64,000 bases of DNA from an uncultured Nitrososphaerota archaeon (GTDB taxonomy: Archaea > Thermoproteota > Nitrososphaeria > Nitrososphaerales > Gagatemarchaeaceae). A program made the position numbers and the translations under genes. The notes under the pieces are model-generated. The model was not told the origin of the DNA, ran no database searches, and saw only the letters and a program-made list of their open reading frames with translations. The stretch spans positions 1,504,001-1,568,000 of the forward strand of contig OY969807.1 in NCBI GenBank assembly GCA_963703285.1. Reading direction: 5' to 3'. Positions 25,671-64,000 of the stretch are shown piece by piece; position 1 is the first letter of the stretch; each line of letters opens with the position of its first letter.

Positions 25671-25709
25671 ATGACAGGTTCGTTGTGCCTCCGCCTGGCA
25701 GCTTCATTC
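25671..25709 (+). repeat. Cassette-boundary repeat R1 (degenerate)
   Basis: ATGACAGGTTCGTTGTGCCTCCGCCTGGCAGCTTCATTC. Confidence 0.6.
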
Positions 25710-25805
25710 GCTTCAGAAGCCCGCGGCCACCCCTAAACCCGGACCCGCTCAAACAATCTCACCTTGCGCACAAGTCAATTATACTGATGGTAGGCTGGCA
25801 AACCC

Positions 25806-26783
25806 ATGGCGAATGCTTCGCTAGGACCAGGCCCCAAGAGCGATACCGAAGATGGGAAGGTCGCTTCCATCACCAGCGGAGGGGTAACCTGGATGGACGT
25901 TCCAGACCCTACCCCCGCCGCAATGGCAACACTCGCGCGCGACTACCATTTTCACCCTTTGGACGTGGACGCGTGTCTTTCCACGGTGCATCTGACGAAG
26001 CTCGAAGACCACGGAGAATATTTCTTCATCACGCTGCAGATCCCGGACCAGGTTGGCCAGGGAATCATCAGTTCCAACCAGGTCGCGATGTTCCTGGGGA
26101 AGGACTATCTCGTGACAGTCCATCCGTCCGACCTCAAGACGATCTCGGCGCTCTTCCAGTCATGCGCCAGTGACGCGAATGAACGAAGCGCGATGATGAA
26201 GTCCTCGGCCTACCTGGCGTGTCGGATTATCGACAGGATGACCGACGGCATCTTCTCGATCTTGGAGAACGTGCAGGCGAGCCTTGACAGCATCGAGGCG
26301 GTGGTGTTCGATGAGAAGAAATCTTCGGCCCGCGCCATAAATTCCGCGCGTCGTCAAATAGCCGTCCTCAGTAGGATCGTCTACCCGTTGGGGCTGTACA
26401 TTACCGACCTGTCCAAGGCGCAGAAGTTCAGCAGTGAAGACCTTGCGATCTACTTCAGCGACATCCGCCACAAAGTCGGGAAGGTCTCGGCGACAATCGC
26501 GGAGATGAAGGACATGGTTGGGATATACAACGACACCGACTTCAGCATAACCAGCAACCGGACAAACGCCGTCCTCTCGATCTTGACAATCATCTTCACC
26601 CTCACACTCCCCGCAGCCCTGATAGCTGGCGTGTACGGAATGAACGTGCCTATTCCTGGCGCCCTGACGCCGGGACCTTGGAAATTCCTCGGAGCCTACA
26701 CCTCTGTGATAATCATCCTCGTGGCGATGCTCGTCCCGACCATCATGATGGCATTCTACTTCAAGCACCGCGGCTGGTTCTAG
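25806..26783 (+). CDS. corA: CorA-family Mg/Co transporter
   Basis: FHPLDVD, C-terminal TM pair with YGMN motif. Confidence 0.93.
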   Translation: MANASLGPGPKSDTEDGKVASITSGGVTWMDVPDPTPAAMATLARDYHFHPLDVDACLSTVHLTKLEDHGEYFFITLQIPDQVGQGIISSNQVAMFLGKDYLVTVHPSDLKTISALFQSCASDANERSAMMKSSAYLACRIIDRMTDGIFSILENVQASLDSIEAVVFDEKKSSARAINSARRQIAVLSRIVYPLGLYITDLSKAQKFSSEDLAIYFSDIRHKVGKVSATIAEMKDMVGIYNDTDFSITSNRTNAVLSILTIIFTLTLPAALIAGVYGMNVPIPGALTPGPWKFLGAYTSVIIILVAMLVPTIMMAFYFKHRGWF

Positions 26784-26858
26784 GCGCTGGCCGTTGCGCG
26801 AGAGGGCTAAGAGGGTGAGACGGCGCTCACAGCTCGGGCAGTGGGTGCCCTTCGATCC

Positions 26859-26870
26859 CCTCCGCCGGGG
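26859..26870 (+). repeat. Possible remnant repeat R2
   Basis: Only the core CCTCCGCCGGGG, intergenic. Confidence 0.3.
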
Positions 26871-26944
26871 GAACGTTATCTTCTATCTAGCTGGAGCAAC
26901 TCGAGACCGATGACAGGAGCCCGGCGCCCTGGAGTTCCATCAAT

Positions 26945-27138
26945 GAGTCGGTTGTTAGGGTCGGCTAGTGACGCGGCAGGTGACCAGAGTGGGTCTCGGA
27001 AGAAGAGCTGTGATTTGTAATGGGTTGATTCTTGAACCGTGGATGAGCATGTGAGCTGTGATTCCAGTTTTGCCACTTCTCATGTGGGTAGTCCTTCCTC
27101 GGCCCCTCATCAGTCTCCTTAGCAATCTATGCCGACTC
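26945..27138 (-). ncRNA. Candidate structured ncRNA directly downstream of the DIP1984-like gene
   Basis: Nested complementarity: GUCGGC(A)UAG/CUAGCCGAC, GACUGAUGAGGGG/CCCACUCUGGUC, GAGGAAGG/UCUUCUUC; the loop carries AAUCACAGCUC twice. Confidence 0.45.
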
Positions 27139-27140
27139 TC

Positions 27141-27620
27141 CTAAACCGTGATGGTCACCCTGTGATTGGCCTCCTGTATCGCCGCGTCAAGGACGTTTCT
27201 TTGTCTCTCGTACTCTTCCTGGAGCTGGAGTAGCTCGGCGGGGGTCTTCTGCCACCTCTGTGGGACCTCATCCTTCGACCTGTGTCTCCATCCTAGGAAG
27301 TCTGACTTCCTCTCGTTACTCAGCATTCCGGAGATGTGTGTGAGCTTGATTCGGATGTTGCTCAGTTCGAGTATCGCCTTCGCGAGTGACATCTCCAAGT
27401 CCCCAATCCTGATTCGGTTCGACAAGTTCGCGGCTTGGATTGCAAGTTTCAACTCAGTCTCCCGCCTCAAGGTTTCGTCAATCTGTTCAGAGAGCGCATC
27501 ATACCGGAAATCTGGTTCGGAATCGGCCTCATAGACGAGGCTAGATTCCCTGAACTTCGAAAGCTGGATTAGTCTGGCTTTGAGCGTCTTCACCTCGGCA
27601 AGCGCCTCGTAAACCTTCAT
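27141..27620 (-). CDS. DIP1984-like three-helix coiled-coil protein
   Basis: MKVYEAL...LKLAIQAANL...MSLAKAI...LDAAIQEANHRV pattern. Confidence 0.75.
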   Translation of the reverse strand: MKVYEALAEVKTLKARLIQLSKFRESSLVYEADSEPDFRYDALSEQIDETLRRETELKLAIQAANLSNRIRIGDLEMSLAKAILELSNIRIKLTHISGMLSNERKSDFLGWRHRSKDEVPQRWQKTPAELLQLQEEYERQRNVLDAAIQEANHRVTITV

Positions 27621-27667
27621 GGTCTCTCGTCCCCTATATCCGGATACTTGGCTTTATATTCTTGATA

Positions 27668-27706
27668 AGTAAAGAATCCTTTGGCTCTACTTAAGAATCC
27701 TTTACT
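27668..27706. promoter_or_regulatory. Putative AbrB operator in a divergent promoter
   Basis: AAGAATCCTTT direct repeat twice, framed by the inverted AGTAAAG...CTTTACT. Confidence 0.5.
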
Positions 27707-27728
27707 TCCTTTGGTTGTAGGAAAGCCC

Positions 27729-27887
27729 TTGGTTAGAGAAATCCTGGGAACGAGCAGGATAAGCAGCAAATTCCAGATTACGGTCCCCAAGGAAGTAAGG
27801 GATCGGTTCAAGCTCAGCGCCGAGGAGATTCTCGTCTTCTCAGATGATGATGGGAAGCTCATCCTTCGCAAGAGTACAGAGGCGTAG
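27729..27887 (+). CDS. AbrB/MazE/SpoVT DNA-binding protein (no adjacent toxin)
   Basis: SRISSKFQITVPKEVRDRFKL...LVF..DDGKLILRK. Confidence 0.85.
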   Translation: MVREILGTSRISSKFQITVPKEVRDRFKLSAEEILVFSDDDGKLILRKSTEA

Positions 27888-28129
27888 CGTCCGACCTGCT
27901 TCATCTTCGCGTACCTCAATCCTATGCTGAGACCGTATATTAGCGCCAACGCAAGCTTGGCATTCGACCGTTGTGGGATTTCCATGCGCTCGAGAACAAT
28001 CGTGCTTTTGGCGGGATGTCCAATCGATGTTCCAGTCCCGGTCCTTGCTCTGCAATGGAGGGTGGACAACTCGTCCAGAATGATTTTATCCCCCGAACCC
28101 CCCGAGCAGCGAGCATGAAGAAAAATTAG

Positions 28130-28429
28130 TTGCCTTCCAGACCAAGAGGAAGAGAGGACGAAGTAGTCATAATCGGAGTGAGGAAGAAGAGCGGCCATTC
28201 CGACGAGGTTTGTGTCGAGTGCAGGCTTGGTCGCCTTCGATTCGCAGTATCTCTGCCTTCGGACGAGTTCAGTTTTGTCGAGCTGAAGAAAGAAATTGGC
28301 AGAAGCCTGCAATGTGAGTTTGGGACGAGATATGCCAAATCACTAGTCGGACGGGCGATTCCTTTGGCCGAGATCATCAAGGAATCAGACGCTTCTAAGC
28401 GAGGTAACAAGTTCTGGGACTTGTTCTAA
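28130..28429 (+). CDS. Hypothetical protein
   Basis: 99-aa ORF whose stop is 4 nt before repeat R3. Confidence 0.5.
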   Translation: MPSRPRGREDEVVIIGVRKKSGHSDEVCVECRLGRLRFAVSLPSDEFSFVELKKEIGRSLQCEFGTRYAKSLVGRAIPLAEIIKESDASKRGNKFWDLF

Positions 28430-28432
28430 GCC

Positions 28433-28450
28433 CATTGCGCCTGCGCCGGG
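28433..28450 (+). repeat. Repeat R3 (partial)
   Basis: CATTGCGCCTGCGCCGGG. Confidence 0.6.
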
Positions 28451-28506
28451 TATTCCTCGTTTAGCCTTGGGCCGCATTCGGCCGACCTGCGTCAGGTGTT
28501 TGGTTC

Positions 28507-28647
28507 TCACTTGGTGGAAGCCTTCGCTTCCACCCGTTTCTTTTCCTTCGCCCTCATGAACAGCTCCGTCGCCACCAGGGCCTCGGCCGACGCCTTCGTC
28601 AAGGCTCGAATCTCACGCTTCTCCCTGGGATTCAGCTCTTTCTTCAT
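28507..28647 (-). CDS. Small basic helical protein (46 aa)
   Basis: MKKELNPREKREIRALTKASAEALVATELFMRAKEKKRVEAKASTK; ATGA overlap with the upstream ORF ending at 28644. Confidence 0.5.
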   Translation of the reverse strand: MKKELNPREKREIRALTKASAEALVATELFMRAKEKKRVEAKASTK

Positions 28648-28884
28648 CCTCGCTTCAATTCCTCCTCCTCGCTCTTAAATCTTGTAGATGCCTCAGCGTA
28701 GTAAAATTCTGCTGCCAACTTCTTGTTGAAGATGATCTGGATGACGTTGCCTACCCGTATCAACCTCACGGAGGTCGCGCCCAAGTCGTATTGGCTGGCT
28801 TGGAAGTCCGAGGAAGTCACATCACCGAAGTTTTGTGGAGTACTTGACTCCCCAGTGTTAGATTTGCGCCATGGACTCGACCGC

Positions 28885-28934
28885 GTAGGTTTCATTGCGC
28901 CTCCGCCTGGGAACGTTTCCTTGCATGTGTTGAC
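28885..28934 (+). repeat. Repeat R4 (right arm degenerate)
   Basis: GTAGGTTTCATTGCGCCTCCGCCTGGGAACGTTTCCTTGCATGTGTTGAC. Confidence 0.8.
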
Positions 28935-29177
28935 ACGGAATTCGCGTCTGTCCGACATGAGAATGATCAGCCGATGAAGAAGACCAATCTCCAGATGGGG
29001 TCGGTCTTAACTACCCGCGGTTCACCGGGTACCTCGGGTGGCTGGTGTCCCATGGGCTCGTGGGAAGCAAAGAAGAGGACGGCGACGAACTGTATTCTCT
29101 CTCGGCGCAGGGGCCCGACGCGCACCATCGTCTTGTGGGTTGGATGAGGGAGAGACCATGAAGGGGATGCGAATCTG

Positions 29178-30149
29178 ATGAAGGCGGTCGTCCGCACCAG
29201 GTACGGGCCGCCGGAGGTCCTCCAGTTCAAGGAGACGGAGATCCCGACCCCTGGAGACGACGAGGTACTCGTGAGAGTGCGCGCGACGTCGCTGAACAAG
29301 TCCGACCTGTTTCAGCTGAACCCGCCCTTCATGATTCGTCTGCTCCTGGGCGGAGGGCGCCTGAAGCCGAAGCGGAGCTCGCTCGGGACGGACCTGGCTG
29401 GGCGGGTCGAGGAGGTCGGCCGGAATGTGAAGCAGTTCAAGGCTGGCGACGAGGTGTTCGGAATCGGCCGGGGTGCCTTCGCCGAGTATGCGTGCGCCAG
29501 TGAAGAGAACCTGGCGTTGAAATTGAAGAGGGCAACGTTCGAGGATTCGGCCACCCTGCCCGTCGCGGGAACGACGGCCCTGCAGGCCATCGGCAAGGCA
29601 CAGGTCCAACCAGGACAGAAGGTCCTGATCGACGGCGCGTCTGGTGGTGTCGGTACCTTCGCGCTGCAAATCGCAAAGGCGTTCGGGGCCGAAGTCACGG
29701 CCGTGTGCAGCACGGGCAACGTGGCCAGCGCGCGGTCGATGGGCGCGGACCACGTCATCGACTACACAAAGGAGGATTTTGCCAAGAACGGGCGGAGGTA
29801 CGACTCAATCATCGAGGTCAATGGATATCGCTCGATTCTGGGGTACAGGCGCGCACTGGGCGCAAAGGGGGCTTACGTGATGGCCGGGAGCTCCAGACCG
29901 CTTCTCCAGATGCTGCAGAGCGTCACTTTGGGTCCGATGGTTTCGAGGAGCGGGGGAAAGCATATGGGCTTCATGGGGATAGCGAAGATAAACCAGAAGG
30001 ACCTCGATAGCCTCAGAGAGCTTCTCGAGAAGGGAAAGATCAAGCCCATTATCGATAAGAGCTACCCGCTGAGCGAAACCGCTGAAGCTTTCAGGTACTT
30101 TGCAGAGGGACACACGCACGGAAAGGTGGTCATAGCATTTTCAGATTAG
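29178..30149 (+). CDS. NAD(P)-dependent MDR-family oxidoreductase (quinone reductase-like)
   Basis: YGPPEVL, GTDLAG.V, GAFAEY, IDGASGGVG, GHTHGKVVI. Confidence 0.93.
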   Translation: MKAVVRTRYGPPEVLQFKETEIPTPGDDEVLVRVRATSLNKSDLFQLNPPFMIRLLLGGGRLKPKRSSLGTDLAGRVEEVGRNVKQFKAGDEVFGIGRGAFAEYACASEENLALKLKRATFEDSATLPVAGTTALQAIGKAQVQPGQKVLIDGASGGVGTFALQIAKAFGAEVTAVCSTGNVASARSMGADHVIDYTKEDFAKNGRRYDSIIEVNGYRSILGYRRALGAKGAYVMAGSSRPLLQMLQSVTLGPMVSRSGGKHMGFMGIAKINQKDLDSLRELLEKGKIKPIIDKSYPLSETAEAFRYFAEGHTHGKVVIAFSD

Positions 30150-30162
30150 TGGGTTTGGGGAG

Positions 30163-30993
30163 TCAGGCTGTCCCGGCTTCGATCAGCTTAGGGATTTCGT
30201 GCAGGCTGGAGATTCTCTTCACGAAGAGGCCCCTCCTTGGTTTGAATCCCCTCGGTATGTGCTCCAATATCGCCCCGTAGCGGTTGTCGTACCTGTGCCA
30301 GAGCCCGGTGTAGAGGGCGGCGTTCATCCCAAAGGATGCCGCGCCTGCGACGTCCGCCCTGAAGGAGTCGCCGACGTGTAAGACCTCAGCGGGCTCGACG
30401 GAGAGGGCCCGCACCGCATGCTCGAAGATCTCTCTACGAGGCTTGACGAAGCCCACGTCGCAGGAAATGGTCAGCGAGTCGAAGTACTTCATGATGCCCA
30501 TCGTCTTGAGCATCCTCTCGTAGGCCTTGGTCGACCTGCCCGCGTTCGAGATGAGACCTATCTTGATTCCCTCGAACTCGTTCTTCAGTTGCCGGAGCAC
30601 GGGCTTCGCCTCGGGGTTGAGGTGGGGGAGCCTGGAGGAGGCCCCGGAGTCGGAGAGGATTCTCCCTGCTCGTTCCCGCATCGCTTGCTCCTCCGCCTTC
30701 CCGAACCTTATCCCGAGAGTGTCGAAGAGCATCCCGCCGCGCTCCTCGAGAGAAAGCTCGAGGTTGTTCTTGTAGGCCTCCTCTATCCTGCCGTTGAGCT
30801 CCTCCATGGCCAGCCGCACGGCGTTGAAGCTTACTCCTTCGTGCAGGGAGCTGGCCAGACCCGCTCTCGTCCTCAGGAAGCGGTGGAAGTTGATGAGCCG
30901 CCGCAGCTTCCAGTAGTCAGCGAGCTCCCGCGTGTCCCAGATCAGCGTGAGCCAGAGGTCAAGCGTGACGGCACGGATTTTCAGCTCAGACAC
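30163..30993 (-). CDS. HAD-family hydrolase
   Basis: TLDLWLTL, ISNA, KP.REIF, HVGDSFRADVAGA. Confidence 0.9.
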   Translation of the reverse strand: MSELKIRAVTLDLWLTLIWDTRELADYWKLRRLINFHRFLRTRAGLASSLHEGVSFNAVRLAMEELNGRIEEAYKNNLELSLEERGGMLFDTLGIRFGKAEEQAMRERAGRILSDSGASSRLPHLNPEAKPVLRQLKNEFEGIKIGLISNAGRSTKAYERMLKTMGIMKYFDSLTISCDVGFVKPRREIFEHAVRALSVEPAEVLHVGDSFRADVAGAASFGMNAALYTGLWHRYDNRYGAILEHIPRGFKPRRGLFVKRISSLHEIPKLIEAGTA

Positions 30994-31127
30994 TGGCGGT
31001 GCCAGACTCCCGTCCCCTTAACAAGCGTTTTCGGAGGATTTCATCTAGTGAGAGAGACTCGTTTCAGTCCAACCTCAAAATCCGTCCAGTGAGAGCTAAT
31101 CTGCAGATTCTCTCCCATGAACGGCAC

Positions 31128-31185
31128 TTCTAACGTGTAGGGTTGATTGGCCCCCGCCGGGGCGTTTCGTGCACATGTTGGGCTA
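31128..31185 (+). repeat. Repeat R5 (full length, diverged; the only copy with AAC in the left arm)
   Basis: TTCTAACGTGTAGGGTTGATTGGCCCCCGCCGGGGCGTTTCGTGCACATGTTGGGCTA. Confidence 0.8.
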
Positions 31186-31274
31186 GAGCCAGGCGGAGTT
31201 CAGCGTAACACTTATGAAATCTGAGACCAAGCTGTGAGACGCGTGCGTGAGACCCATCGTCGACCAAGAATATC

Positions 31275-31928
31275 GTGAGCACGATCAATGCCAGGCTGCC
31301 CGGCTCCAGACGCGACATTGAGGCTATCCTCCTAGTCGGCAGCACCGCCTTCGCCAAGAATCTGGCAGATTGGGATGATTTCGACGTTCAGGTGTACACG
31401 CGAGAGCAGCCGAGAGTCAGAGAGTACTACGAGATAATCGAGGACGGCGGGAGTCACTACCTGCTGGGCGCCCGTTACTTTCGCCTCGACAGGCTCAATA
31501 CCCCGCCTGCGAGTGTCCTGCAGCAGAAGGACGTGCAGATCCTCTTTGGGAAAGAGGAAGCGCTTCGGCACCTCTTCGCCAATAGGCCGAGAAGGATAGA
31601 GCCAATACCGCATGCAATCAGGAATTTCAAGGAGAACTACGAGAACTGCTTCATGCTGCTCGTGGACCTGTTCTTCATCCTCAAGAGGTATGAGGCGAGG
31701 GGCAGGCGCGATGCCACAAAGCCCCGCTTGTGCCGTGATGCCATGAGAACGATCGCAAGACACTACTATGGATTCTACGGGGTCAGTCGACCAATCCCGG
31801 ACCGGGTTAGGTGGAGGAGACTGTTGGCCGAAACCATTCAGTTACTCGAGGAACGAAAGTTCGAGACCATCTGCCGCAACAGGAAGCTCGTAAGGACCGC
31901 AATCGATTTGATGTCGCAACACACGTAG
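31275..31928 (+). CDS. Nucleotidyltransferase-like hypothetical protein
   Basis: ILLVGS.A......DDFDVQV resembles the pol-beta NTase GS..DxD motif. Confidence 0.6.
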   Translation: MSTINARLPGSRRDIEAILLVGSTAFAKNLADWDDFDVQVYTREQPRVREYYEIIEDGGSHYLLGARYFRLDRLNTPPASVLQQKDVQILFGKEEALRHLFANRPRRIEPIPHAIRNFKENYENCFMLLVDLFFILKRYEARGRRDATKPRLCRDAMRTIARHYYGFYGVSRPIPDRVRWRRLLAETIQLLEERKFETICRNRKLVRTAIDLMSQHT

Positions 31929-31938
31929 GAACGTCTCC

Positions 31939-31960
31939 GGGGTTCATCGCGCCTCCGCCG
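31939..31960 (+). repeat. Repeat R6 (3'-truncated)
   Basis: GGGGTTCATCGCGCCTCCGCCG. Confidence 0.85.
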
Positions 31961-32009
31961 TCGCGGTCCCTTTCCCTGAAGGGGCGAGCGACCGGACTTC
32001 CTGCACGTA

Positions 32010-32396
32010 CTACTTCCAGACGGTCTTGACCGGGGTGTCGCCTAGTCCCCAGCTCCATGAGACCCTGGGCCTGATGCGGATGTACTCGCCTTTGCCGAAC
32101 TCCCCCTCGTGCGTCACGATATCGGCCACACCGTTCACCCTTATCCCGCGCACCTTCCACGGGTCCACCGAGACGAGGTCGTCTATGACCAGCGCGACCT
32201 GCCGGTTCCCGCTCTTGACGTTGAGGTACCTTGGGGTGGACCTGAGGATCTTCTGCTTGACGCTCCCGATGTAGAAGCACTTGCCGTCGAACTCGAAACC
32301 CACGGGAGCGACGTTCGGCTTGCCCTTTGTGGTGGCCGTGGCTACCCTCACGAGAAGCTGCGACTTCAGGTACTTGAGCTCCTCCTTGTTGAACAT
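32010..32396 (-). CDS. PPOX-class F420-dependent oxidoreductase
   Basis: RVATA...PNVAPVGF, VALVIDDLVSVDPWKVRGIRVNG, SWSWGL. Confidence 0.9.
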   Translation of the reverse strand: MFNKEELKYLKSQLLVRVATATTKGKPNVAPVGFEFDGKCFYIGSVKQKILRSTPRYLNVKSGNRQVALVIDDLVSVDPWKVRGIRVNGVADIVTHEGEFGKGEYIRIRPRVSWSWGLGDTPVKTVWK

Positions 32397-33031: not shown

Positions 33032-33058
33032 ATCACGGTCAGGCTGCTTGAATTCGTG

Positions 33059-34125: not shown

Positions 34126-34174
34126 GTCTTTCGCGCCGGAAATGGCCAACGCTCTCGGGAAGTTCAGAAAACAG

Positions 34175-57482: not shown

Positions 57483-57537
57483 GCCACGTATCGGGTTCAT
57501 TGCGCCTCCGCCGGGGCATTTCATCCACACGTTGGGC
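57483..57537 (+). repeat. Repeat R18 (full length, perfect core)
   Basis: GCCACGTATCGGGTTCATTGCGCCTCCGCCGGGGCATTTCATCCACACGTTGGGC. Confidence 0.97.
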
Positions 57538-57588
57538 CAGAGTTGGCGCGGTGTGGGCTCCGTTGTGGATTGGCTTGATGCACATGTC

Positions 57589-57626: not shown

Positions 57627-57881
57627 ATGCCGATCTTCACGGTGAGGGTGGATGAGCAGCTCAAGAGGAAGATGGACGACCTCAAGGAGGTAAACTGGAG
57701 CGAGGTGACGAGGGCGGCGATCGAAGAGAAGGTAAGGGAGACGGAGATGTGGAGGCGCGTCGATGTCACGAAGCTGAGGCGCGCTTCCGCTGAGACCGAC
57801 GGCCTCAGGCGGAAGGTGGAAGGGTGGAGCAGTGCTTCTGAGATCAGGAGATGGCGTTCGCGTGTCAGCGATAGTAGCTGA
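57627..57881 (+). CDS. vapB: Ribbon-helix-helix antitoxin
   Basis: FTVRVDEQLKRKM....VNWSEVTRAAIEEK. Confidence 0.88.
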   Translation: MPIFTVRVDEQLKRKMDDLKEVNWSEVTRAAIEEKVRETEMWRRVDVTKLRRASAETDGLRRKVEGWSSASEIRRWRSRVSDSS

Positions 57882-58305
57882 CGCCTCAGTCATCGTGAAG
57901 TGGTTCGTGGAGGAGGAGCACTCGGACCGGGCGCTGCGACTCAGAGATGACCACGTGGAACAGAGGGTCAGAGTGGTCATCCCCTCGCTCGCTGGCTACG
58001 AGGTCCTGAACGCGCTCCGATACTCGGGGAGCTTCGGCGCGGAGGACCTTGTCGAGGTCTCGAGGGCCCTTGATGGATACCAGTTCATGGAGGTCGGCAT
58101 GAGCGGCCGCTGCGCGGAGGAGGCGGTGAGGATCGCCCTAGACTACGGGGTAACCGTCTACGATGCAGCCTACCTGGCCATAGGGAAGCTGAGGGGGCTC
58201 GAGGTATACACGGCGGACGACGAACTGCTGCGCAAGGTGGAGAAGCTCGGGTTCGTGCGGCACGTGAAGGAGTACGAGGGTGGGAATCAAGCGCGCCGTG
58301 GGTAG
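57862..58305 (+). CDS. vapC: PIN-domain toxin VapC
   Basis: VADASVIVKWFVEE, YEVLNAL, TVYDAAYLA, YTADD; the stop TAG lies inside repeat R19. Confidence 0.92.
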   Translation: MSAIVADASVIVKWFVEEEHSDRALRLRDDHVEQRVRVVIPSLAGYEVLNALRYSGSFGAEDLVEVSRALDGYQFMEVGMSGRCAEEAVRIALDYGVTVYDAAYLAIGKLRGLEVYTADDELLRKVEKLGFVRHVKEYEGGNQARRG

Positions 58306-58324
58306 GGTTCATTGCGCCTCGCCG
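58295..58324 (+). repeat. Repeat R19 (3'-truncated)
   Basis: GCCGTGGGTAGGGTTCATTGCGCCTCGCCG. Confidence 0.9.
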
Positions 58325-58339
58325 CGAAAGGCGAGTGGC

Positions 58340-59077
58340 TCATCCGCTGGTCTCTTTCAGCGAATAGCCCCAAACGAAGGTCGTCGAGGGATTACCGTGC
58401 AAGACCTCGCTCGTTGGAAGCGATGCTAGGGGGATGCTGAGTTCGTTCGGGTACACGGCCAGATAGGGGCCCGGGTTGTTGGTCGCGGTGCTCACACCAG
58501 CCATGTTCCCGGTGCAGGTCAGCGAGACAGAGTAGTTGGCGGGCGCAGGGTTTGCGAAGAAGATGGTGACGTTTCCTTGCAGAGCGGTCGTGACGTCGGG
58601 GATGGTGAAGGTATAGGGGAACGTCTGGGAGCCGGTGCAGAAGCCCGTAGTCGTGATGGTGTAGGTACCGTGCCCGGTCCCGCTCCCGGAAAAGTTGTCG
58701 GCGGCGATGAAGAAGGTGAACGAGCCGCTGGCCGTCTGGACCGAATTGTAGTACTGCGCCGAACCGTTGGGAAGGGACCTGACGCCGGAGGGCCCTACAG
58801 GAATGCTGTAGTTGAACGTCCCGCTGTAGTAGGTCAGCCCGGTCTCGGTGGTAGTCGAACTTCCGGTCTTCGATACGACGGTGGATGTGCTCTTCGTTGT
58901 GGAAATCGACGAGCCGGTGCTGGAGGCGATGGACGTCGTCGATGCGACCTTGGAGGATGACAGGGCGTAGTATGCCCCCACCGACGCAATGACGATGACA
59001 ATCACGATGATGATGACGATCAACGCGACGCCGATCCCGGTCCTCCTCTGCTTCGCCAGTCGCGCACGAAGGTTCAA
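58340..59077 (-). CDS. Secreted Ser/Thr-rich surface protein with class III-like signal peptide
   Basis: KQRRTG-IGVALIVIIIVIVIVI, S/T linker, many NxS/T sequons. Confidence 0.75.
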   Translation of the reverse strand: MNLRARLAKQRRTGIGVALIVIIIVIVIVIASVGAYYALSSSKVASTTSIASSTGSSISTTKSTSTVVSKTGSSTTTETGLTYYSGTFNYSIPVGPSGVRSLPNGSAQYYNSVQTASGSFTFFIAADNFSGSGTGHGTYTITTTGFCTGSQTFPYTFTIPDVTTALQGNVTIFFANPAPANYSVSLTCTGNMAGVSTATNNPGPYLAVYPNELSIPLASLPTSEVLHGNPSTTFVWGYSLKETSG

Positions 59078-59226
59078 GGAATCCTACCCTGTGACCCGTT
59101 ATGCCCTAAGAAGTTTGCGACAGCAGCTTCCATTCTCCCAAGGATGGCCTTTCATGGATTAGAGGATTGCGCCTTCGCGTGTCATTGAGCCGCAGAATAG
59201 GATTCGACTTCTGGCCTAGATGTGTC

Positions 59227-59252
59227 GTATAGGGTTCATTGCGCCTCCGCCG
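59227..59252 (+). repeat. Repeat R20 (3'-truncated)
   Basis: GTATAGGGTTCATTGCGCCTCCGCCG. Confidence 0.92.
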
Positions 59253-59260
59253 AGACGCAC

Positions 59261-59704
59261 TCATCGCTTCTGATTCCGGCTCTCCAGTAGCTGCTTAAGA
59301 CCCGCCAGCATCATCTCCCAATTCTTCTGAGAGTAATCGCGGGCTTGTTCGGTGTCATTGTTGTCCTGGGTCAGCGAAACGGACGTGCCTTCGCCATTGC
59401 GCGACAGCTCAATGGTCACGGTATGGTAGTTCTCGGGGATGTCAGGCAGACCGGACAGAGGACTGAAGTGGGTGTAGCGAACTATGCGCTCTGGTTTCAG
59501 CTCGAGAATGGTCCCTCTGTCCTCGTATGACTTCCCCTTCCAGACGCCCTTCCAGGCGATTGGGCCGCCTTCCTTCCATTCTGAAACCACCTCGGTGCCG
59601 AACATGTACTCCTTGATCACTTGCGGGTTGACGAGGGCGTCCCATACGGCCGCGACGGGAGCATTAATCTTCGTGCGCGCCTTCGCTACGAGTCCTTTGG
59701 CCAT
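59261..59704 (-). CDS. SRPBCC/AHSA1-like domain protein
   Basis: INAPVAAVWDALVNP, NWEMMLAGLKQLLE. Confidence 0.9.
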   Translation of the reverse strand: MAKGLVAKARTKINAPVAAVWDALVNPQVIKEYMFGTEVVSEWKEGGPIAWKGVWKGKSYEDRGTILELKPERIVRYTHFSPLSGLPDIPENYHTVTIELSRNGEGTSVSLTQDNNDTEQARDYSQKNWEMMLAGLKQLLESRNQKR

Positions 59705-59740
59705 CGGGCCATTCTTTGGATGGTGCGTCATAAGACCTTC

Positions 59741-59798
59741 GCCATGCATAAGGGTTCATTGCGCCTCCGCCGGGGCATTTCATCCACACGTTGGGCTA
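59741..59798 (+). repeat. Repeat R21 (full length, perfect core)
   Basis: GCCATGCATAAGGGTTCATTGCGCCTCCGCCGGGGCATTTCATCCACACGTTGGGCTA. Confidence 0.97.
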
Positions 59799-60020
59799 TA
59801 GTAAGTCGGTGAACTCGTCCACAGTTAAACCGGCATCGGCTATGATGGCCCTAAGAGTGCCCTTCGCTAGCTCCTTGTGGTTGGGGACGGAGATTCGGCG
59901 GTGCGGCGGCTCCACTTGTCTTAGGATCATGTGGCTCCCCGTCTGATGGTCCACAGCGTATCCAGCTTTCGAGAGAGCCTTGACCACTTCCCTGCCCGAG
60001 ATGACGGGAAGCTTAGGCAC
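59796..60020 (-). CDS. hicA: HicA toxin
   Basis: LPVISGREVVKAL..GY...QTGSH, VPNHKELAKGTL.AII; the stop overlaps the end of R21. Confidence 0.93.
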   Translation of the reverse strand: MPKLPVISGREVVKALSKAGYAVDHQTGSHMILRQVEPPHRRISVPNHKELAKGTLRAIIADAGLTVDEFTDLL

Positions 60021-60225
60021 TGACCTCGACCACTTCCTCGTCTATCGAGGGTGGTATCGGCTCATGGTGCTTCTTGAGGCTGGCGAGGTAACCGTCGATG
60101 GCATCCTTGATGTTGGCCAGCGCTTCCTTCCGGGTTCTTCCTTCAGAGATGCAACCCGGCAGCGAGGGTACCTTGGCCACGAAAGCGCCGTCCTCGTCCT
60201 GCTCGATGGTTACCCTGTACTTCAC
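60013..60225 (-). CDS. hicB: HicB antitoxin
   Basis: YRVTIEQDEDG.FVA.VPSLPGCISEG.T..EAL.NIKDAI. Confidence 0.93.
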   Translation of the reverse strand: MKYRVTIEQDEDGAFVAKVPSLPGCISEGRTRKEALANIKDAIDGYLASLKKHHEPIPPSIDEEVVEVSA

Positions 60226-60278
60226 GTTCCGAAAAGCAGGATTGCTCAGTTAAAATCCTTTGGCCAGTTGATGCTTGA

Positions 60279-60309
60279 GCCATGTATAGGGTTCATTGCG
60301 CCTCCCGGG
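60279..60309 (+). repeat. Repeat R22 (3'-truncated)
   Basis: GCCATGTATAGGGTTCATTGCGCCTCCCGGG. Confidence 0.92.
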
Positions 60310-60387
60310 ATTAGATATTCTACGTCGAGCTGTCAGGTGCCCTTATTAGTATGTGAATCCACATATCACAAATAGCGAGGAATCGAC

Positions 60388-60630
60388 TTGGCGAACGTTA
60401 CCCTGTCTGTACCGGAAGAGCTCCGAAAGATAATGAAGAACCACCCTGAGATAAAGTGGAGCGAGGTAGCGAGGCAGGCGATGTGGGCGTACGCGAAGAA
60501 GCTTGAGATTATGGACGAAGCTACCAAGCGGAGCAGGCTGACCGAAGACGATGTCCTCGAACTAGACAAGGTAATCAAGGCGAGCCTCTCCGCGAAATAC
60601 GCTAAGAAAGCGGAAAGAAACACAGCTTGA
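60388..60630 (+). CDS. vapB: Ribbon-helix-helix antitoxin
   Basis: [29 protein letters not shown]; upstream ATGTG-N4-CACAT. Confidence 0.88.
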
Positions 60631-61037
60631 AGTTCGTCCTCGACACGAACGTGATTCTAAAGGCGCTGATCAAGAACTCGTCAGTTCGGGCGATTATAAT
60701 CGGGTCCAAACACGAGTTCTCGATTCCCAAGGAAGCGATTGAGGAGATTCGAAGACATTCGTCTCTTGTGAAGGAGAAATCCGGTCTTTCCGAGACGGAA
60801 ATCAAATCGGTTCTTGATACGTTGCTCACGGGCGTTCAGCTGATTCAAACAGAGAAAGACGCAGCCGAGAGGAAAGAGGCAGAAAATGTTATGTCATCCA
60901 TTGACAAGGATGACGCACCGTTCCTTGCGGCCGCTATGAGCATTGTTTGTGATGGAATCTGGAGTGATGATAAGCATCTAAAGCGGCAGACAAGAGTAAG
61001 GGTCTGGACGACCAAAGAGATTCTGGCGCTGAACTGA
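60627..61037 (+). CDS. vapC: PIN-domain toxin
   Basis: [25 protein letters not shown]. Confidence 0.92.
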
Positions 61038-61061
61038 CTGGTAGTGCTTAGCTCGACCCGC

Positions 61062-61108
61062 GGGTTCATTGCGCCTCCGCCGGGGCATTTCATCCACACG
61101 CTGGCCTA
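61062..61108 (+). repeat. Repeat R23 (perfect core)
   Basis: GGGTTCATTGCGCCTCCGCCGGGGCATTTCATCCACACGCTGGCCTA. Confidence 0.96.
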
Positions 61109-61155
61109 AGGCTAGCCCACGCGATGATTTGCCGAGTTCGACTCCGGCCGAGAAG

Positions 61156-61488
61156 TCATGCCCACTTCGAACCGAATTGGATGAACGCCATGAGGATAGG
61201 AATCGCATCCCACCCTTTTGCGGTCAGGTCCCATCGGACGAGGTTGGCTCTCTTCACTACGAGATGTATGAAACCCTCCCTTTCGAGCTCCTTGAGCCTC
61301 TTGGAAAGCATCCTTGGAGTTATCCCGGGCGTTGAAGCCAAGATTTCGTTGAACCTGTGATGTCCTTGCATTCCGATGGCTCGTATGATGAGGAGCGACC
61401 ACTTCTTGGAGACCGCTCCCTGGGTGGCCTGAACGGTCCAGTTGGCGAGTTCCAACTTGATCTTTATCGGAGCATCTGCAGGAGCCAA
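61156..61488 (-). CDS. HxlR-family winged-helix regulator
   Basis: KKWSLLII, RFNEI...PGITPRMLSKRLKELEREG, LTAKG. Confidence 0.88.
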   Translation of the reverse strand: MAPADAPIKIKLELANWTVQATQGAVSKKWSLLIIRAIGMQGHHRFNEILASTPGITPRMLSKRLKELEREGFIHLVVKRANLVRWDLTAKGWDAIPILMAFIQFGSKWA

Positions 61489-61546
61489 AGCAGCTATACT
61501 TTTGGGCCAGCGCTTCTTATTAGGATATCCAATGTATAGTTAAGCC

Positions 61547-61936
61547 GTGAACGGGACAGTCACGCACTTTGAGATTCCGGCTGACGATGTGCAGCGCGCA
61601 CGTGCCTTTTACTCAGGGCTCTTCGACTGGGAACTGAGTCCCTTCTACGGGTCGGATTATCTTTACATCACTCCGAAGAATACGGCCGGGAGAGTCCCTC
61701 CAGACACCCTTGTCACCGGCGGGCTTGACAAACGGAGCGAGGAGTTGGAGCACGTCACGGTCGTCTTCGAAGTGGAAAGCGTGGAAAGGTCGTTGAGTGT
61801 TGTCGAGAAGCTCGGCGGCGAAGTCTTCAGGAAGAAGCGGCCGGTCGGTGACTTCGGCTTCAGCGCCTATTTCAGGGACACCGAAGGTAACGTGCTCGGG
61901 CTGTTCGAACAGGTCAAGCCCTCCGCAAGACGATGA
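61547..61936 (+). CDS. VOC/glyoxalase family protein
   Basis: VTHFEIPADDVQRARAFY..LF.W, AYFRDTEGNVLGL. Confidence 0.92.
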   Translation: MNGTVTHFEIPADDVQRARAFYSGLFDWELSPFYGSDYLYITPKNTAGRVPPDTLVTGGLDKRSEELEHVTVVFEVESVERSLSVVEKLGGEVFRKKRPVGDFGFSAYFRDTEGNVLGLFEQVKPSARR

Positions 61937-61957
61937 GAGGGGCAGTGGGCGTACGAG

Positions 61958-62013
61958 GTGTGCATGAGATTCGTTGCATCGCCACCAGGGCATTTCATCC
62001 ACATAATGGGCTA
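61958..62013 (+). repeat. Repeat R24 (full length, diverged)
   Basis: GTGTGCATGAGATTCGTTGCATCGCCACCAGGGCATTTCATCCACATAATGGGCTA. Confidence 0.8.
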
Positions 62014-62060
62014 TGGTTCGCCGGTACGATGAATTGCAGAGTTGGGCTCTTGAGAAGAAC

Positions 62061-62450
62061 TTATCTCCGTCTTCTTCCCTTTGTCATCCTCGAGCCCATC
62101 TCAATCCAGTTCCCGTCGGGGTCTTGGACATATGCGAGCCTCCACCTTCCCTCGTCGAATGGCGCGATCTCGCCCCTTTTCGTGCGCGACAATCTGGCGT
62201 AGGCTTCGTCAGCGTCATCGACCTGGTATGCTAGGTGGTCGAGCCCAGAGGAACCTCCGTACTTGTATCCTTCCGGGTACCAGTTCAGCTCGAGGACTTG
62301 GGACGAGCCTTCCGACTTGAGCCAAGCAACCTTGCCACCTGTCTCCTTGATCTCCGCGCTGAAGAGAAGCTTCATCTTGAGCTCCTTAGTGTAGAATCTA
62401 ATCGAACGGTCCAAGTCGGAGACGTGGATGCCAGTGTAGATGAACTTCAT
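62061..62450 (-). CDS. VOC/lactoylglutathione lyase-like protein
   Basis: YTGIHVSDLDRSIRFY, LELNWY, LDHLAY, QDPDGNWIE. Confidence 0.92.
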   Translation of the reverse strand: MKFIYTGIHVSDLDRSIRFYTKELKMKLLFSAEIKETGGKVAWLKSEGSSQVLELNWYPEGYKYGGSSGLDHLAYQVDDADEAYARLSRTKRGEIAPFDEGRWRLAYVQDPDGNWIEMGSRMTKGRRRR

Positions 62451-62489
62451 ATCATTCCTTTGGCGCACTCGGCTCACCTAGAATCCGCG

Positions 62490-62777
62490 TCATGTCCAGA
62501 GGATGGGTGTCCCTCGGTAAGCTTCGACGGAGTATTCTAGCGGCTCGAAATCGACGCCCTCGAGCGCTTTGGACATCTCAGGCCGCGCCGCCTCAAAATC
62601 GCTCTTGGTGTCCCAGAGTGCGGTTCCAATCAGAGCGCCAGTCTTGTCGTCCTTCCATGCGAAGACGGTAATCAATCCTTTGTGTCCTCGCTGAGCGTTC
62701 CCGAATTTCATCATTGTTTCCAGTATGGCCTGCTCTTTGCCCGGCTTTGGGTGATGGATGCCGACGCTTACATACAT
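62490..62777 (-). CDS. Antibiotic biosynthesis monooxygenase (ABM)-like protein
   Basis: PKPGKE, GLI, ALWDTKSDFEAA dimeric alpha-beta barrel pattern; TTAAAT box ~25 nt upstream. Confidence 0.75.
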   Translation of the reverse strand: MYVSVGIHHPKPGKEQAILETMMKFGNAQRGHKGLITVFAWKDDKTGALIGTALWDTKSDFEAARPEMSKALEGVDFEPLEYSVEAYRGTPILWT

Positions 62778-62813
62778 GTTGAGAGATCGGTATGGCGCGT
62801 ATTTAAGAATCGG

Positions 62814-62862
62814 AGGGGTTCATTGCGCCTCCGCCGGGGCATTTCATCCACACGCTGGGCTA
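62814..62862 (+). repeat. Repeat R25 (perfect core)
   Basis: AGGGGTTCATTGCGCCTCCGCCGGGGCATTTCATCCACACGCTGGGCTA. Confidence 0.96.
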
Positions 62863-62907
62863 TAGGTGCGGGCCCTGAATCAGGGCAAACGTGTTGGCAC
62901 AAGTTCC

Positions 62908-63354
62908 CTATACTCTTCCAGCAAGATCCTTGATTCCCACGATGATGTCAGAGTCGTACCCGTTTTCTTGCAGAAAGGCCTTCAGTTCCTTGTCAAGAGA
63001 CAAAAAGAGCATTCCAGAGTCGAGGGCCGTAGCATAGAGTATGTTGTCGATGTTGTCCTTGTGCCCTTTGCTGCGCAGTTCAAGAGCGATGCGAATCGCG
63101 CCAGAAGACGGACTAATCCATCTGTAGGTCCCTGACTCGAATAGACTCTTGATACCCATCCCGACGGCCAACTTGTCCACGTTCTTGGACTTGCCGAGAA
63201 GCCCCAGTATTTCGACGAAGCTTATCTGCGAGCAGCACAATCCCGTTCGCTTCCTGACGCTACCCATCGCTTCAAGGTCTTTAGGACTAATCTCCTCGAC
63301 GTCGACGCCGAGTGTGGGAAGGATAAACGAAGTGTCCAATAAGATGTCAGGCAT
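62908..63354 (-). CDS. vapC: PIN-domain toxin
   Basis: ILLDTSFILP, SFVE, GHKDNIDNILYATA, LSLDKEL. Confidence 0.9.
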   Translation of the reverse strand: MPDILLDTSFILPTLGVDVEEISPKDLEAMGSVRKRTGLCCSQISFVEILGLLGKSKNVDKLAVGMGIKSLFESGTYRWISPSSGAIRIALELRSKGHKDNIDNILYATALDSGMLFLSLDKELKAFLQENGYDSDIIVGIKDLAGRV

Positions 63355-63583
63355 ACAGTTCAGACTGCTCCTTCTCCGATTCCAACTCGACCTCTTTTGC
63401 GGTAGTCTTCATCCATTTTTTTGAACGTATGGCGATGTCAATAGGGTCGGGTATTGGCTCGACAACCAACTTGCCGTTCACTATCTGGTATCTTACTCTC
63501 TGTCCTTCCTTGAGTCCGAGTTTCCTTACGATGTCCTTCGGCGGATAGAGAGCAAATTTCTTGGCTACCTTTCCGTCGCTCAT
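63347..63583 (-). CDS. vapB: AbrB/MazE-type antitoxin
   Basis: KVAKKFALYPPKDIVRKLGLKEGQRV...GKLVVEP. Confidence 0.88.
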   Translation of the reverse strand: MSDGKVAKKFALYPPKDIVRKLGLKEGQRVRYQIVNGKLVVEPIPDPIDIAIRSKKWMKTTAKEVELESEKEQSELYA

Positions 63584-63642
63584 GATTACCGGGCGATAGT
63601 CACTATCCCGGTACATAAGTCTTACCTGGCTATTTTGATGTA

Positions 63643-63696
63643 CCATGTGTAGGGTTCGTTGCGCCTCCGCCGGGGCATTTCATCCACACGTTGGGC
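63643..63696 (+). repeat. Repeat R26 (full length)
   Basis: CCATGTGTAGGGTTCGTTGCGCCTCCGCCGGGGCATTTCATCCACACGTTGGGC. Confidence 0.97.
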
Positions 63697-63742
63697 AGCA
63701 GGTGCCGCAAGGAAAATCGCGATAGCGGTTGTTCACACAGCG

Positions 63743-64000
63743 CTAGTATATCGGATGAGGACCGCACCGTAGAAAGGTGATGAGCCGTTCCCTTGATTCG
63801 ATAGAATAGAGAACTCGAATGTCACGACCGATGTCATACCCGTAGGCACCCTGCCACTTTCCAAGTTTCGGTCTGCCGAGCCTTCTAGGGTCGTCGGAGT
63901 TCAAAATGTCCCTGATTGCTTCATCGACCCTTCGTTGGTTCAAGTGGCTGAGATTCTTGTAGTCTCTTCTGAAGGTCGGGGTGTATGCAGGAGACCAGGG
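63743..64000 (-). CDS. RelE/ParE-family toxin (5' end beyond the window)
   Basis: The frame is open to the window edge: WSPAYTPTFRRDYKNL...DPRRLG...IRVLYSI...FLRCGPH..Y. Confidence 0.8.
   Translation of the reverse strand, partial: PWSPAYTPTFRRDYKNLSHLNQRRVDEAIRDILNSDDPRRLGRPKLGKWQGAYGYDIGRDIRVLYSIESRERLITFLRCGPHPIY

Follow-up and report, generated by a model that had tools for sequence, protein, structure and literature searches.

An integron-like array of gene cassettes anchored at the 3' end of the 23S ribosomal RNA gene in a Nitrososphaerota archaeon

Integrons are the textbook case of cassette-wise gene capture. Small, integrase-less modules with a recombinase encoded elsewhere are also known from the Xer/dif system, where integrative mobile elements exploiting Xer (IMEX) and the pdif modules of Acinetobacter plasmids are inserted successively at one chromosomal site; IMEX and pdif hybrid sites keep one good arm and the central region, and pdif sites alternate in orientation. 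For archaea, the accessible sections of Ghaly et al. (2022, PMC9668308) describe integrons with canonical attCs, six IntIs, at most 12 attCs per contig and up to 107 attCs in one metagenome-assembled genome (MAG). Tandem integration at one site is mentioned in the available text of studies on archaeal tyrosine recombinases (PMC8371274) and on integrated elements of Thaumarchaeota (PMC6563490), and the main texts of both do not contain the word 'rRNA'. No description of cassette arrays, or of integration, at the 3' end of a ribosomal RNA (rRNA) gene in archaea was found in the open-access literature. Here we analyze a 64,000-nucleotide stretch (the window) of the chromosome of an uncultured Nitrososphaerota archaeon (assembly GCA_963703285.1, contig OY969807.1), in which co-oriented copies of a short repeat enclose small units of unrelated genes. 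The array so formed ends at the 23S rRNA gene, whose 3' end and trailer are the sequence repeated.

The window corresponds to positions 1,504,001-1,568,000 of a single 2,252,123-bp contig, and its numbering is continued past 64,000 for outlying copies. The repeat had been noticed in an initial annotation made from the window alone. When the centre of the consensus given there (34 nt, up to 3 mismatches) was searched in the window, six matches were found, all on the + strand, with no match in any of 100 shuffles, and a self-search of the window for repeats returned overlapping families with 8-13 copies each. Our count of copies is based on a hidden Markov model built from 10 window copies, with which the entire genome was searched by nhmmer (E<=10). 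This search yielded 46 matches, 41 of them in one cluster of 62 kb (genome 1,529,671-1,591,872; window numbering 25,671-87,872), and all 41 are on the + strand; 24 kb of the array lie past the window end. The genome-wide search, which the initial annotation had proposed as a check on clustering, thus places the copies at one locus and on one strand, not scattered. The other five matches are weak or partial and dispersed, at 32198(+), 704456(-), 1332669(-), 1717162(+) and 1733309(+). What had been annotated for the window itself also stood up well: of the roughly 26 copies, 23 correspond to the 23 nhmmer matches in the window, and the remaining three (26859, 28433 and 34175) are decayed, with 9, 5 and 6 mismatches, respectively, to the 20-nt core described below. 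As annotated, no copy lies in the first 25 kb, since nhmmer gives no match in 1-25,670.

We named the two halves of the repeat A (5'; GCCATGYRTA-GGGTTCATTGCGCCTCCGCC-GGGG) and B (3'; CATTTCATCCACACGTTGGGC(TATAG)), and refer to the 20 nucleotides GGGTTCATTGCGCCTCCGCC within A as the core. Judged by the model end that each nhmmer match reaches, 20 of the 41 copies carry both halves and 21 carry A alone, in agreement with the earlier remark that many sites are cut at one internal point. B without A was never seen: all 19 B matches found in the array by a Hamming scan sit behind an A, in places a diverged one, and the eight B-like matches outside the array are every one at the 5-mismatch limit. 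The observation that the integron-type box pair RYYYAAC/GTTRRRY is complete at one end only was likewise correct, as GTTGGGC is present in full copies and the RYYYAAC partner is missing from most copies. Four of the sites outside the array are solitary A-only copies, at 32204(+), 1332643(-), 1717167(+) and 1733322(+), with 1, 1, 3 and 2 core mismatches, respectively; none has a second copy within 6 kb, where the chance expectation is 0.15 matches per 12 kb at <=5 mismatches.

The array runs past base 64,000, beyond the view of the initial annotation, and stops at the 23S rRNA gene of a minus-strand operon (16S, then 23S, with a spacer that holds no tRNA), which is the only rRNA operon of the genome. 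When aligned to the last copy, the archaeal large-subunit (LSU) rRNA model of Rfam extends through B as far as its final position (2987), and the final ~25 nt of the 23S, ...CUAUAGCCCAACGUGUGGAUGAA, are the reverse complement of B. As the LSU model is aligned to its final position and B is the 23S end, the copy that closes the array is the authentic 3' end of the 23S together with its trailer. On the + strand, this native site reads GCCATGTATA-GGGTTCATTGCGCCTCCGCC-GGGG in A and CATTTCATCCACACGTTGGGCTATAG in B. Cofolding of the 23S 5' flank with the trailer gives a long helix (-89.9 kcal/mol). In this fold, the stretch GCCATG to GGGG, which is all of A, makes up the whole 3' strand of the processing stem; by the LSU alignment, B is the last ~25 nt of the 23S. 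The core (rRNA strand, GGCGGAGGCGCAAUGAACCC) spans the bulged part of the stem. The array copies are pieces of this native locus of varying length, all of which include the core; some reach more than 55 nt into the 23S (window-numbered copy 64281), some go farther into the trailer and some end directly after the core.

In an alignment of 251 copies from four species, conservation is 82-98% at the 20 core positions, 64-76% at the four following G and about 30-55% elsewhere. Among the core positions, A66 and G60 (stem numbering) are unpaired in the processing stem and are conserved at 96% and 98%, respectively. That positions are unpaired yet among the best conserved argues for recognition of the sequence, and not for mere pairing or homology. 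In the two commonest core variants, TTCA is replaced by TTCG, so that a G-U pair becomes a G-C pair, and ATTG by ATCG, within the bulge; set against the cofold, both would be neutral with respect to structure.

The 23S gene itself (L002 3839-8884; genome 1,591,839-1,596,884), just past the window, is ~5.0 kb long, compared with the 2,987 positions of the model. It contains a group I intron (RF00028, 54.6 bits, L002 5779-6154) and a second insertion of ~600 nt (L002 ~4392-4999) with a small membrane-like open reading frame (ORF); a weaker group I match (26.8 bits, L002 4288-4344) lies just upstream of this second insertion.

To place the array within the lineage, 19 nucleotides of the core were searched with up to 2 mismatches in genomes of the order. 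Within the genus, 20 of the 22 genomes contain the 19-mer, as does the single genome from a sister genus; it was absent from the one genome of a third genus and from 16 other families, each represented by one genome in a survey that includes many incomplete MAGs. The reversed pattern, used as a control, gave no match in any genome scanned. In three congeners (G014, G021 and G008), rRNA-linked arrays of 83, 59 and 52 copies are found, of which 82/83, 59/59 and 52/52, respectively, are co-oriented, and in all three the last full copy continues into sequence homologous to the 23S end of the present genome. The 83-copy array occupies 126 kb of a ~3.1-Mb genome. Two genomes have additional, smaller secondary arrays elsewhere. 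In G021, two such arrays of opposite orientation (8 copies on + and 13 on -; C3 290,000-346,345) converge on an 18-kb segment with ribonucleotide reductase genes and an amino-acid permease, which is flanked by two different tyrosine recombinase genes, and one cassette with a helix-turn-helix protein is common to both arrays (87% identity).

The repeat was also found in metagenomes. The exact 19-mer occurs in at least 120 contigs, of which 80 (311 kb) were fetched. These hold 156 copies; copies are co-oriented in 41 of the 42 contigs with more than one, and seven contigs adjoin a 23S end. The public sequencing runs containing the sequence are labelled as soil metagenome, and a protein-atlas query with the neighbouring PFOR gene indicates Nitrososphaerota.

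Across six arrays, the 261 units enclosed by the repeats have a median size of 857 bp (interquartile range, 692-1562 bp), with a median of 856 bp in this genome. Genes facing both ways had been annotated, and a crude codon-usage gene finder indeed places 30 genes on + and 26 on -, the 15-kb repeat-free block that divides the array being left out. A blastn comparison of the arrays yields 126 homologous segment pairs (>=200 bp), and many of these segments start and stop within a few tens of bases of a copy. At the same threshold, 14 of 40 units of this genome match the arrays of the three other species. Orientation with respect to the repeat is unchanged in 13 of the 14, and the matched units are collinear only in part. 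Single units are, moreover, present twice in one genome at dispersed positions, with 90-97% identity. Five units common to this genome and G014 are 89-95% identical, compared with 84% for the syntenic PFOR gene and, for the non-array genes of window 1-20,000, no more than 88% over any matched stretch and no more than 83% over stretches longer than 100 bp. This higher identity suggests a recent exchange of units between lineages, although a stronger constraint on these units could also produce it.

The limits of this identity fall at one point. In 24 pairs of homologous units that lie in different contexts, identity above background begins only after the core of the copy before the unit and ends at the core of the copy after it. 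From these limits, a cassette consists of B or nothing, followed by the genes and the left flank of A, with the break inside the core, and the full or cut state of a site belongs to the cassette on its right. The left-flank variants GCCATGCTA and GCCATGCATAA recur across species and move with the neighbouring unit. Of the module-wise system that had been proposed at the repeat, the modules themselves are thus borne out, with units gained, lost, duplicated and moved between congeners and with breaks in the core; that the array grows by single modules we infer.

The architecture and the cargo are integron-like, as initially annotated, with a site that is not a canonical attC. Like integrons and clusters of attC sites lacking integron integrases (CALINs), the locus is a long chromosomal array with co-oriented short sites, alike within the lineage, units of about 0.5-1.5 kb, unrelated accessory and toxin-antitoxin cargo, rapid turnover and cassettes without a recombinase of their own. 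A canonical integron or CALIN, with attC sites served by IntI, would account for a small-cassette array with toxin-antitoxin and enzyme cargo and for GTTGGGC (GTTRRRY) at the 3' end of full copies, and integrons and CALINs are reported for archaeal genomes in the accessible part of PMC9668308. We nonetheless regard it as extremely improbable. One box of the R''/R' pair is missing, with RYYYAAC absent from most copies, and half of the sites have no 3' half. When four full copies were folded as DNA on both strands, the energies ranged from -4.3 to -8.9 kcal/mol, and seven of the eight strand folds were no better than dinucleotide shuffles (z from +0.26 to +1.80; the eighth, -0.64); no hairpin is common to the 20 full copies. 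A scan of the window at Rfam gathering thresholds gave no match, although Rfam holds no attC model. No IntI was found, as the sole tyrosine recombinase of the genome reaches 40.3 bits on the integron integrase model TIGR02249, for which the cut-off is 265, and no integrase adjoins the main arrays. Instead of a folded attC, the array has a site of the double-strand type that is copied from the processing stem of the 23S; the anchor is the 23S 3' end and not an attI beside intI; and genes face both ways. The arrays have 41-83 sites, in contrast to the 12 per contig reported for archaea in the accessible sections of PMC9668308.

Other known systems resemble the array in part. With tandem integrative elements at tRNA 3' ends, it shares direct repeats that copy the 3' end of a structural RNA gene over varying lengths, with the native end as the last copy, and, in relatives, integrase-bearing elements bounded by the same repeat; in our case, however, the target is the 23S trailer and processing stem, and dozens of mostly single-gene, integrase-less units are exchanged as modules. 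The units of the array are not self-sufficient integrative elements. IMEX and pdif modules are similar in being integrase-less, in drawing on a recombinase from elsewhere, in their one-arm hybrid sites and in inserting at one site, and differ in that XerA was not found here and that the sites are co-oriented. The site shows a loose similarity to an 11-6-11 dyad, with 7 of 11 arm positions matching in our own reading, and three proteins of this genome scanned with the archaeal XerA model (NF040815) score 96, 60 and 31 bits, below the cut-off of 220. Thaumarchaea are described as lacking xerA in the available portion of PMC2958812. Arrays of clustered regularly interspaced short palindromic repeats (CRISPR) are likewise polar, with one conserved repeat at a fixed locus that is kept while the intervening segments differ between relatives, but the 'spacers' of our array are whole genes of 0.3-5 kb, its repeat varies in length and Cas1 was not found. 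Overall, the locus works like a sedentary chromosomal integron combined with the tandem accretion of islands at tRNA genes, and it fails the tests that define an integron (IntI, paired boxes and folded attC).

A further explanation is that the copies are a selfish repeat of the repetitive extragenic palindrome (REP) or miniature inverted-repeat transposable element (MITE) type, a terminator or a regulatory element, which is frequent in an accessory region and has no role in gene capture. The copies are indeed short, intergenic and conserved, genes on the + strand often end 5-20 nt ahead of a copy and the minus strand of a copy reads GGAGG-N5-ATG. We nonetheless find this explanation very improbable, given that the copies occupy one locus in strict co-orientation (41 of 46 matches) and are not dispersed in both orientations, that they are not self-complementary, with no self-fold better than shuffles and no Rfam family, that repeat-bounded units move as modules and that the repeat copies the rRNA trailer. 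The idea of a minus-strand leader starting from GGAGG-N5-ATG was dropped, since at 33 of the 41 copies no ORF of at least 100 aa starts within the copy and the spacing to the conserved CATGGC varies by 1-3 nt. A mini-ORF within the repeat was also rejected: an 18-codon frame fits some full copies, and the frame differs between variants.

The initial annotation had placed the recombinase gene outside the window. For this genome, the claim found no support: only one PF00589 protein is encoded, of 412 aa, located 36 kb past the array beside a tRNA, and the int1 family described below was not found. The 412-aa family was rejected as the enzyme of the array, as it occurs patchily in 11 of the 22 genus genomes and in 6 of the 16 other families that have no repeat, and thus does not track the arrays. 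The protein, which is the one scoring 96 bits on the XerA model, has SAM-like N-terminal domains and a C-terminal zinc ribbon. Its gene follows the tRNA and precedes that of an AAA/FtsK-like ATPase (L003 6659-11681; genome 1,626,659-1,631,681), and the locus is probably an element integrated at the tRNA gene. Another family, int2, is similarly patchy (10 of 22 genus genomes), does not track the repeat and was not retained. As for other enzyme classes in the genome, no Cas1 (PF01867) was detected, in a search whose positive control found it in 7 of 14 known genomes; no Y1 transposase was matched; IS110 gave only a sub-threshold match; and the search for the IS91 Y2 transposase matched no control genome and so says nothing here. 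One small serine recombinase gene lies next to TnpB, distant from the array. Two RVT_1 matches with identical scores, in 600-aa open frames (genome 1,883,084-1,883,773(-) and 2,041,636-2,042,325(+)), are also distant from it and are probably copies of one group II intron, and nine TnpB-type genes are found elsewhere in the genome.

Three genes close to the array were considered as the enzyme and rejected. The 315-aa gene at window 24124-25071, at a place resembling that of intI, has no Pfam family and is not recombinase-like by eye. A 376-aa gene beside the last copy has no relative in Pfam, PADLOC or PDB sequences and is patchy in the genus (9 of 22 genomes, 22-33% identity). The PD-(D/E)XK nuclease gene at window 42176-42955 occurs in 13 of the 22 genus genomes and in two other families and was not found in G008, despite the 52-copy array of that genome; a gene of this kind is also found near the distal array end in relatives, and it looks like a chromosomal neighbour and not the enzyme. 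No integrase-bearing unit bounded by repeats was found in the array of this genome.

In relatives, integrase genes do adjoin the site, and the distribution of a third family, int1, follows that of the repeat. Proteins of the int1 family (~450 aa; 455 aa in G021, where PF00589 scores 41.6 bits over a cut-off of 27.1) have the catalytic residues R164, H286, R289, H317 and Y326 (R..HxxR..H..Y), which are invariant in eight aligned members. At E<=1e-15, 16 of the 22 genus genomes have a member, as do the single sister-genus genome (66% identity) and 2 of the 16 other families; none was found in the single third-genus genome. Of 13 int1 genes inspected, seven have a copy of the repeat 0.3-8.5 kb away, and the arrangement is the same in all seven: the 3' side of the copy faces the 3' end of the gene, which is on the opposite strand. 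When only 1.5-kb flanks of int1 loci were considered, a copy was present at 4 of 25. In G020, a homologue of the 412-aa protein (49% identity) lies 0.6 kb from a copy in the same arrangement. Furthermore, a 26.7-kb segment of G014 (C8 1,189,524-1,216,194) encodes two tyrosine recombinases (PF00589), contains two group II introns along with ORFs that match no family, and is bounded by co-oriented direct repeats of ~110 bp, the right part of which is A, with identity stopping at ...CCGCCG. On its sequence, this segment has the structure of an integrated element with A as its attachment (att) site.

Taken together, the array is probably the product of an integron-like accretion of cassettes that are mobilised in trans at an att site in the rRNA trailer, that is, a chromosomal array with a site borrowed from the rRNA operon. 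For its working, we infer an enzyme and circular intermediates, and suppose that insertion takes place chiefly at the site nearest the rRNA and that A is under selection as a trailer. Modules of ~0.3-5 kb that end in a copy of A would recombine with a resident copy, the exchange taking place inside the 20-bp core GGGTTCATTGCGCCTCCGCC. As such an insertion leaves a site on both sides, its repetition would build a co-oriented array downstream of the operon. Sequence to the right of the core, where B varies in length or is missing, would go with the module on that side, and sequence to the left with the other module, while recombination between array sites would delete, duplicate and relocate modules. 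For a module landing beside the 23S, its own A would serve as the rRNA trailer and provide the processing stem with the distal portion of its 3' strand; that an incoming A must act as a trailer would account for the constant presence of A and the dispensability of B. As the enzyme, the most likely candidate would be a tyrosine recombinase acting in trans and provided by integrase-bearing elements that use the same site, notably the lineage-confined int1. As int1 was not found in this genome, the array here may be currently immobile unless an integrase element enters.

Accretion mediated by such a recombinase has some points against it that need to be considered. Some concern the enzyme: the four rRNA-linked arrays (this genome and three congeners) neither contain nor adjoin a PF00589 recombinase gene, and three integrase queries gave no match in the 311 kb of metagenomic array DNA. 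Besides being absent from the matches in this genome, int1 was not found in G020, which has 44 copies; G016, in turn, has an int1 gene and no copy, in a genome that is only 57% complete; and around 6 of the 13 inspected genes of the int1 family, no copy is seen over ~9 kb or as far as the contig extends. The exact 19-mer gave no match in a viral contig collection, and no circular or empty-site form was seen in four soil-metagenome runs, which come from one study and whose short contigs break at the repeat, so that they are uninformative either way. In the public runs, the single reported joint connects 47854 to 52664 (side 22) and is not at a repeat, and loose ends at copies belong to other copies or organisms. 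Polarity is weak as well: in the rRNA-proximal halves of the arrays, 25 of 116 units are common with other species, compared with 43 of 115 distally. This hints weakly at younger proximal halves, and polarity is absent in one of the four arrays, whose genomes are related and not independent. Finally, the B copies carry the 23S-end variant of the resident species, which is GGGGCATTTCATC in this genome and G014 and GGGGATAATCACC in G021, and this holds even for units that are homologous between this genome or G014 and G021. Sites that are purely element-borne do not predict this, and concerted evolution or gene conversion, an origin of the modules within the lineage or a duplicative mechanism is needed. 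One G014 unit does carry a B of the G021 type and is 87% identical to a G021 unit, as a transfer would predict.

Two other explanations were weighed. In the first, no dedicated recombinase is involved: the array would be the leftovers of a few tandem integrations at the rRNA end, and homologous recombination over tracts of 20-60 bp, along with deletion, would have reduced the elements to single genes and have shuffled, duplicated and exchanged the units. The cognate recombinase that was not found in this genome would then not be missed, a B that equals the resident 23S-end variant is what gene conversion would yield, the unit order is partly collinear between species and archaeal elements are known to integrate in tandem at one site, at least from the available text of PMC6563490 and PMC8371274. 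Against this explanation stand the 41-83 units with a median of 857 bp and integrase remnants in almost none of them, and the restriction of breaks to the 20-bp core, although identity often reaches 30-60 bp on either side. The conservation of A66 and G60 (96% and 98%) points to recognition of a sequence, and the dispersed, not tandem segmental, duplication of single units fits badly. We therefore hold that homologous recombination as the sole agent is unlikely.

The second explanation is an insertion that duplicates its target, as in CRISPR adaptation or casposon integration, with staggered cuts around the rRNA-proximal copy and a repair that duplicates the site, so that all copies descend from the native trailer. 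Such a mechanism would produce a species-specific B equal to the resident 23S end, copies that are variable-length pieces of the native locus with the core always included and the weak tendency of proximal units to be younger. Neither Cas1 nor a casposase was found in the genome, however, and target duplication does not account for the left-flank variants GCCATGCTA and GCCATGCATAA common to several species and moving with the neighbouring unit, for single units copied into internal positions or for the att-type structure of the integrase element of G014. We consider it improbable.

Accretion in trans at the trailer can also be put in a fuller form, for which we claim less: soil Nitrososphaerota may possess a gene-capture platform in which the 3' strand of the 23S processing stem is the att site, integrase-less cassettes are moved by a lineage-specific tyrosine recombinase in trans and each cassette brings a working rRNA trailer. 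We advance this form as a tentative proposal that could well prove wrong in one of its parts. If true, a cassette-borne trailer would tie gene capture to rRNA maturation and would fix the site across the genus. A bolder variant links the cutting of the core to the RNA-processing (bulge-helix-bulge) site itself.

The copies of the window and the cargo between them are listed in Table 1. Overall, the cargo consists of single enzymes, toxin-antitoxin pairs and many ORFs without a family. The block that divides the array encodes, in addition to the PD-(D/E)XK nuclease, hydrolases, deacetylases, an SHMT-like protein, an isochorismatase, a luciferase-like monooxygenase and an AMP-ligase.

Table 1 Copies of the repeat, cargo and repeat-free block in the window. 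Positions are window coordinates; A and B are the 5' and 3' halves of the repeat.
Feature	Position	Strand	Basis or content
Outermost array copy, A only, diverged	25671..25698	+	nhmmer E=0.18
Left cargo	25806..41442		Pfam: CorA, DUF6847, Zn-ADH, HAD hydrolase, PNPOx-like, two SAM methyltransferases, amidohydrolase, MazE/AbrB-PIN toxin-antitoxin pair; several ORFs without a family
Decayed copy, remnant CCTCCGCCGGGG only	26843..26880	+	9 mismatches to 20-nt core
Decayed copy	28428..28447	+	5 core mismatches
A with strongly diverged B	28883..28911	+	nhmmer, sequence
Full copy (A and B), the only window copy with both YYYAAC and GTTGGGC	31127..31199	+	nhmmer E=5.7e-13
A-only copy	31938..31960	+	nhmmer
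Full copy	33052..33125	+	nhmmer E=5.8e-16
Decayed copy	34185..34204	+	6 core mismatches
Full copy	36012..36081	+	nhmmer E=1e-16
A-only copy	36486..36517	+	nhmmer
A-only copy; unit on right (to 38108) 94% identical to a G014-array unit	37427..37457	+	nhmmer, blastn
A-only copy	38108..38138	+	nhmmer
A-only copy	38883..38911	+	nhmmer
Full copy	39927..39997	+	nhmmer E=3.3e-15
A-only copy	40695..40718	+	nhmmer
A-only copy, identity stopping within core	41448..41469	+	nhmmer, sequence
A with partial B; final copy ahead of the repeat-free block	42089..42131	+	nhmmer E=2.5e-9
15-kb block without copies, dividing the array in two	42176..57328		gene map, Pfam
Full copy	57481..57548	+	nhmmer E=1.1e-18
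Right cargo	57627..63583		PIN-domain pair, AHSA1/SRPBCC protein, HicB-like antitoxin, small ORFs without a family (Pfam scan of 6 of ~13 called genes)
Truncated A-only copy	58303..58320	+	nhmmer
A-only copy	59225..59254	+	nhmmer
Full copy, best model match	59739..59812	+	nhmmer E=9.2e-22
A-only copy; unit on right 90% identical to a G014 unit	60277..60305	+	nhmmer, blastn
Full copy	61049..61121	+	nhmmer
Full, diverged copy	61959..62027	+	nhmmer
Full copy	62803..62874	+	nhmmer
Full copy; array goes on past window	63639..63711	+	nhmmer

At the other end of the array, the rRNA-proximal unit (L028 402-5747; genome 1,586,402-1,591,747) is a 5.5-kb module with five genes, which encode a STAND-like NTPase (a weak match to PADLOC mad8), a DEDDh/RNase H-like exonuclease and three ORFs without a family, and is possibly a defence system. 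Over its first 3.3 kb, the module has 80% identity with a unit of G021 that is located five places away from the rRNA end. To the left of the array, window 17000-21300 is housekeeping-like, yet it is not syntenic in relatives, and in G014, G021 and G008 pieces of it map to the arrays or next to them. Window 17530-18165 falls within the G014 and G021 arrays, with two bracketing copies in G021 and only the upstream copy adjacent in G014; the aldo-keto reductase gene at 20432-21259 is, in G008, a unit bounded by two copies; and window 17568-17624 has a 74% paralogous stretch inside the array, at 37509-37565. This left flank may be an old part of the array with decayed sites. Apart from the array, window 2889-2996 shows a 12-bp tandem periodicity, with six overlapping 48-nt copies that are 63-77% alike, within apparent coding sequence.

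The genus thus carries arrays of 41-83 cassettes on a site that is taken from the rRNA operon's own processing signal, which raises a testable link between mobile DNA and rRNA maturation. If confirmed, the system would be a second, independent solution to cassette capture, with a natural attachment site beside the most strongly transcribed locus of the cell. It would also offer a candidate recombinase-site pair for the genetics of Nitrososphaerota, where such tools are lacking, and would explain much of the accessory gene content of a common lineage of soil archaea.

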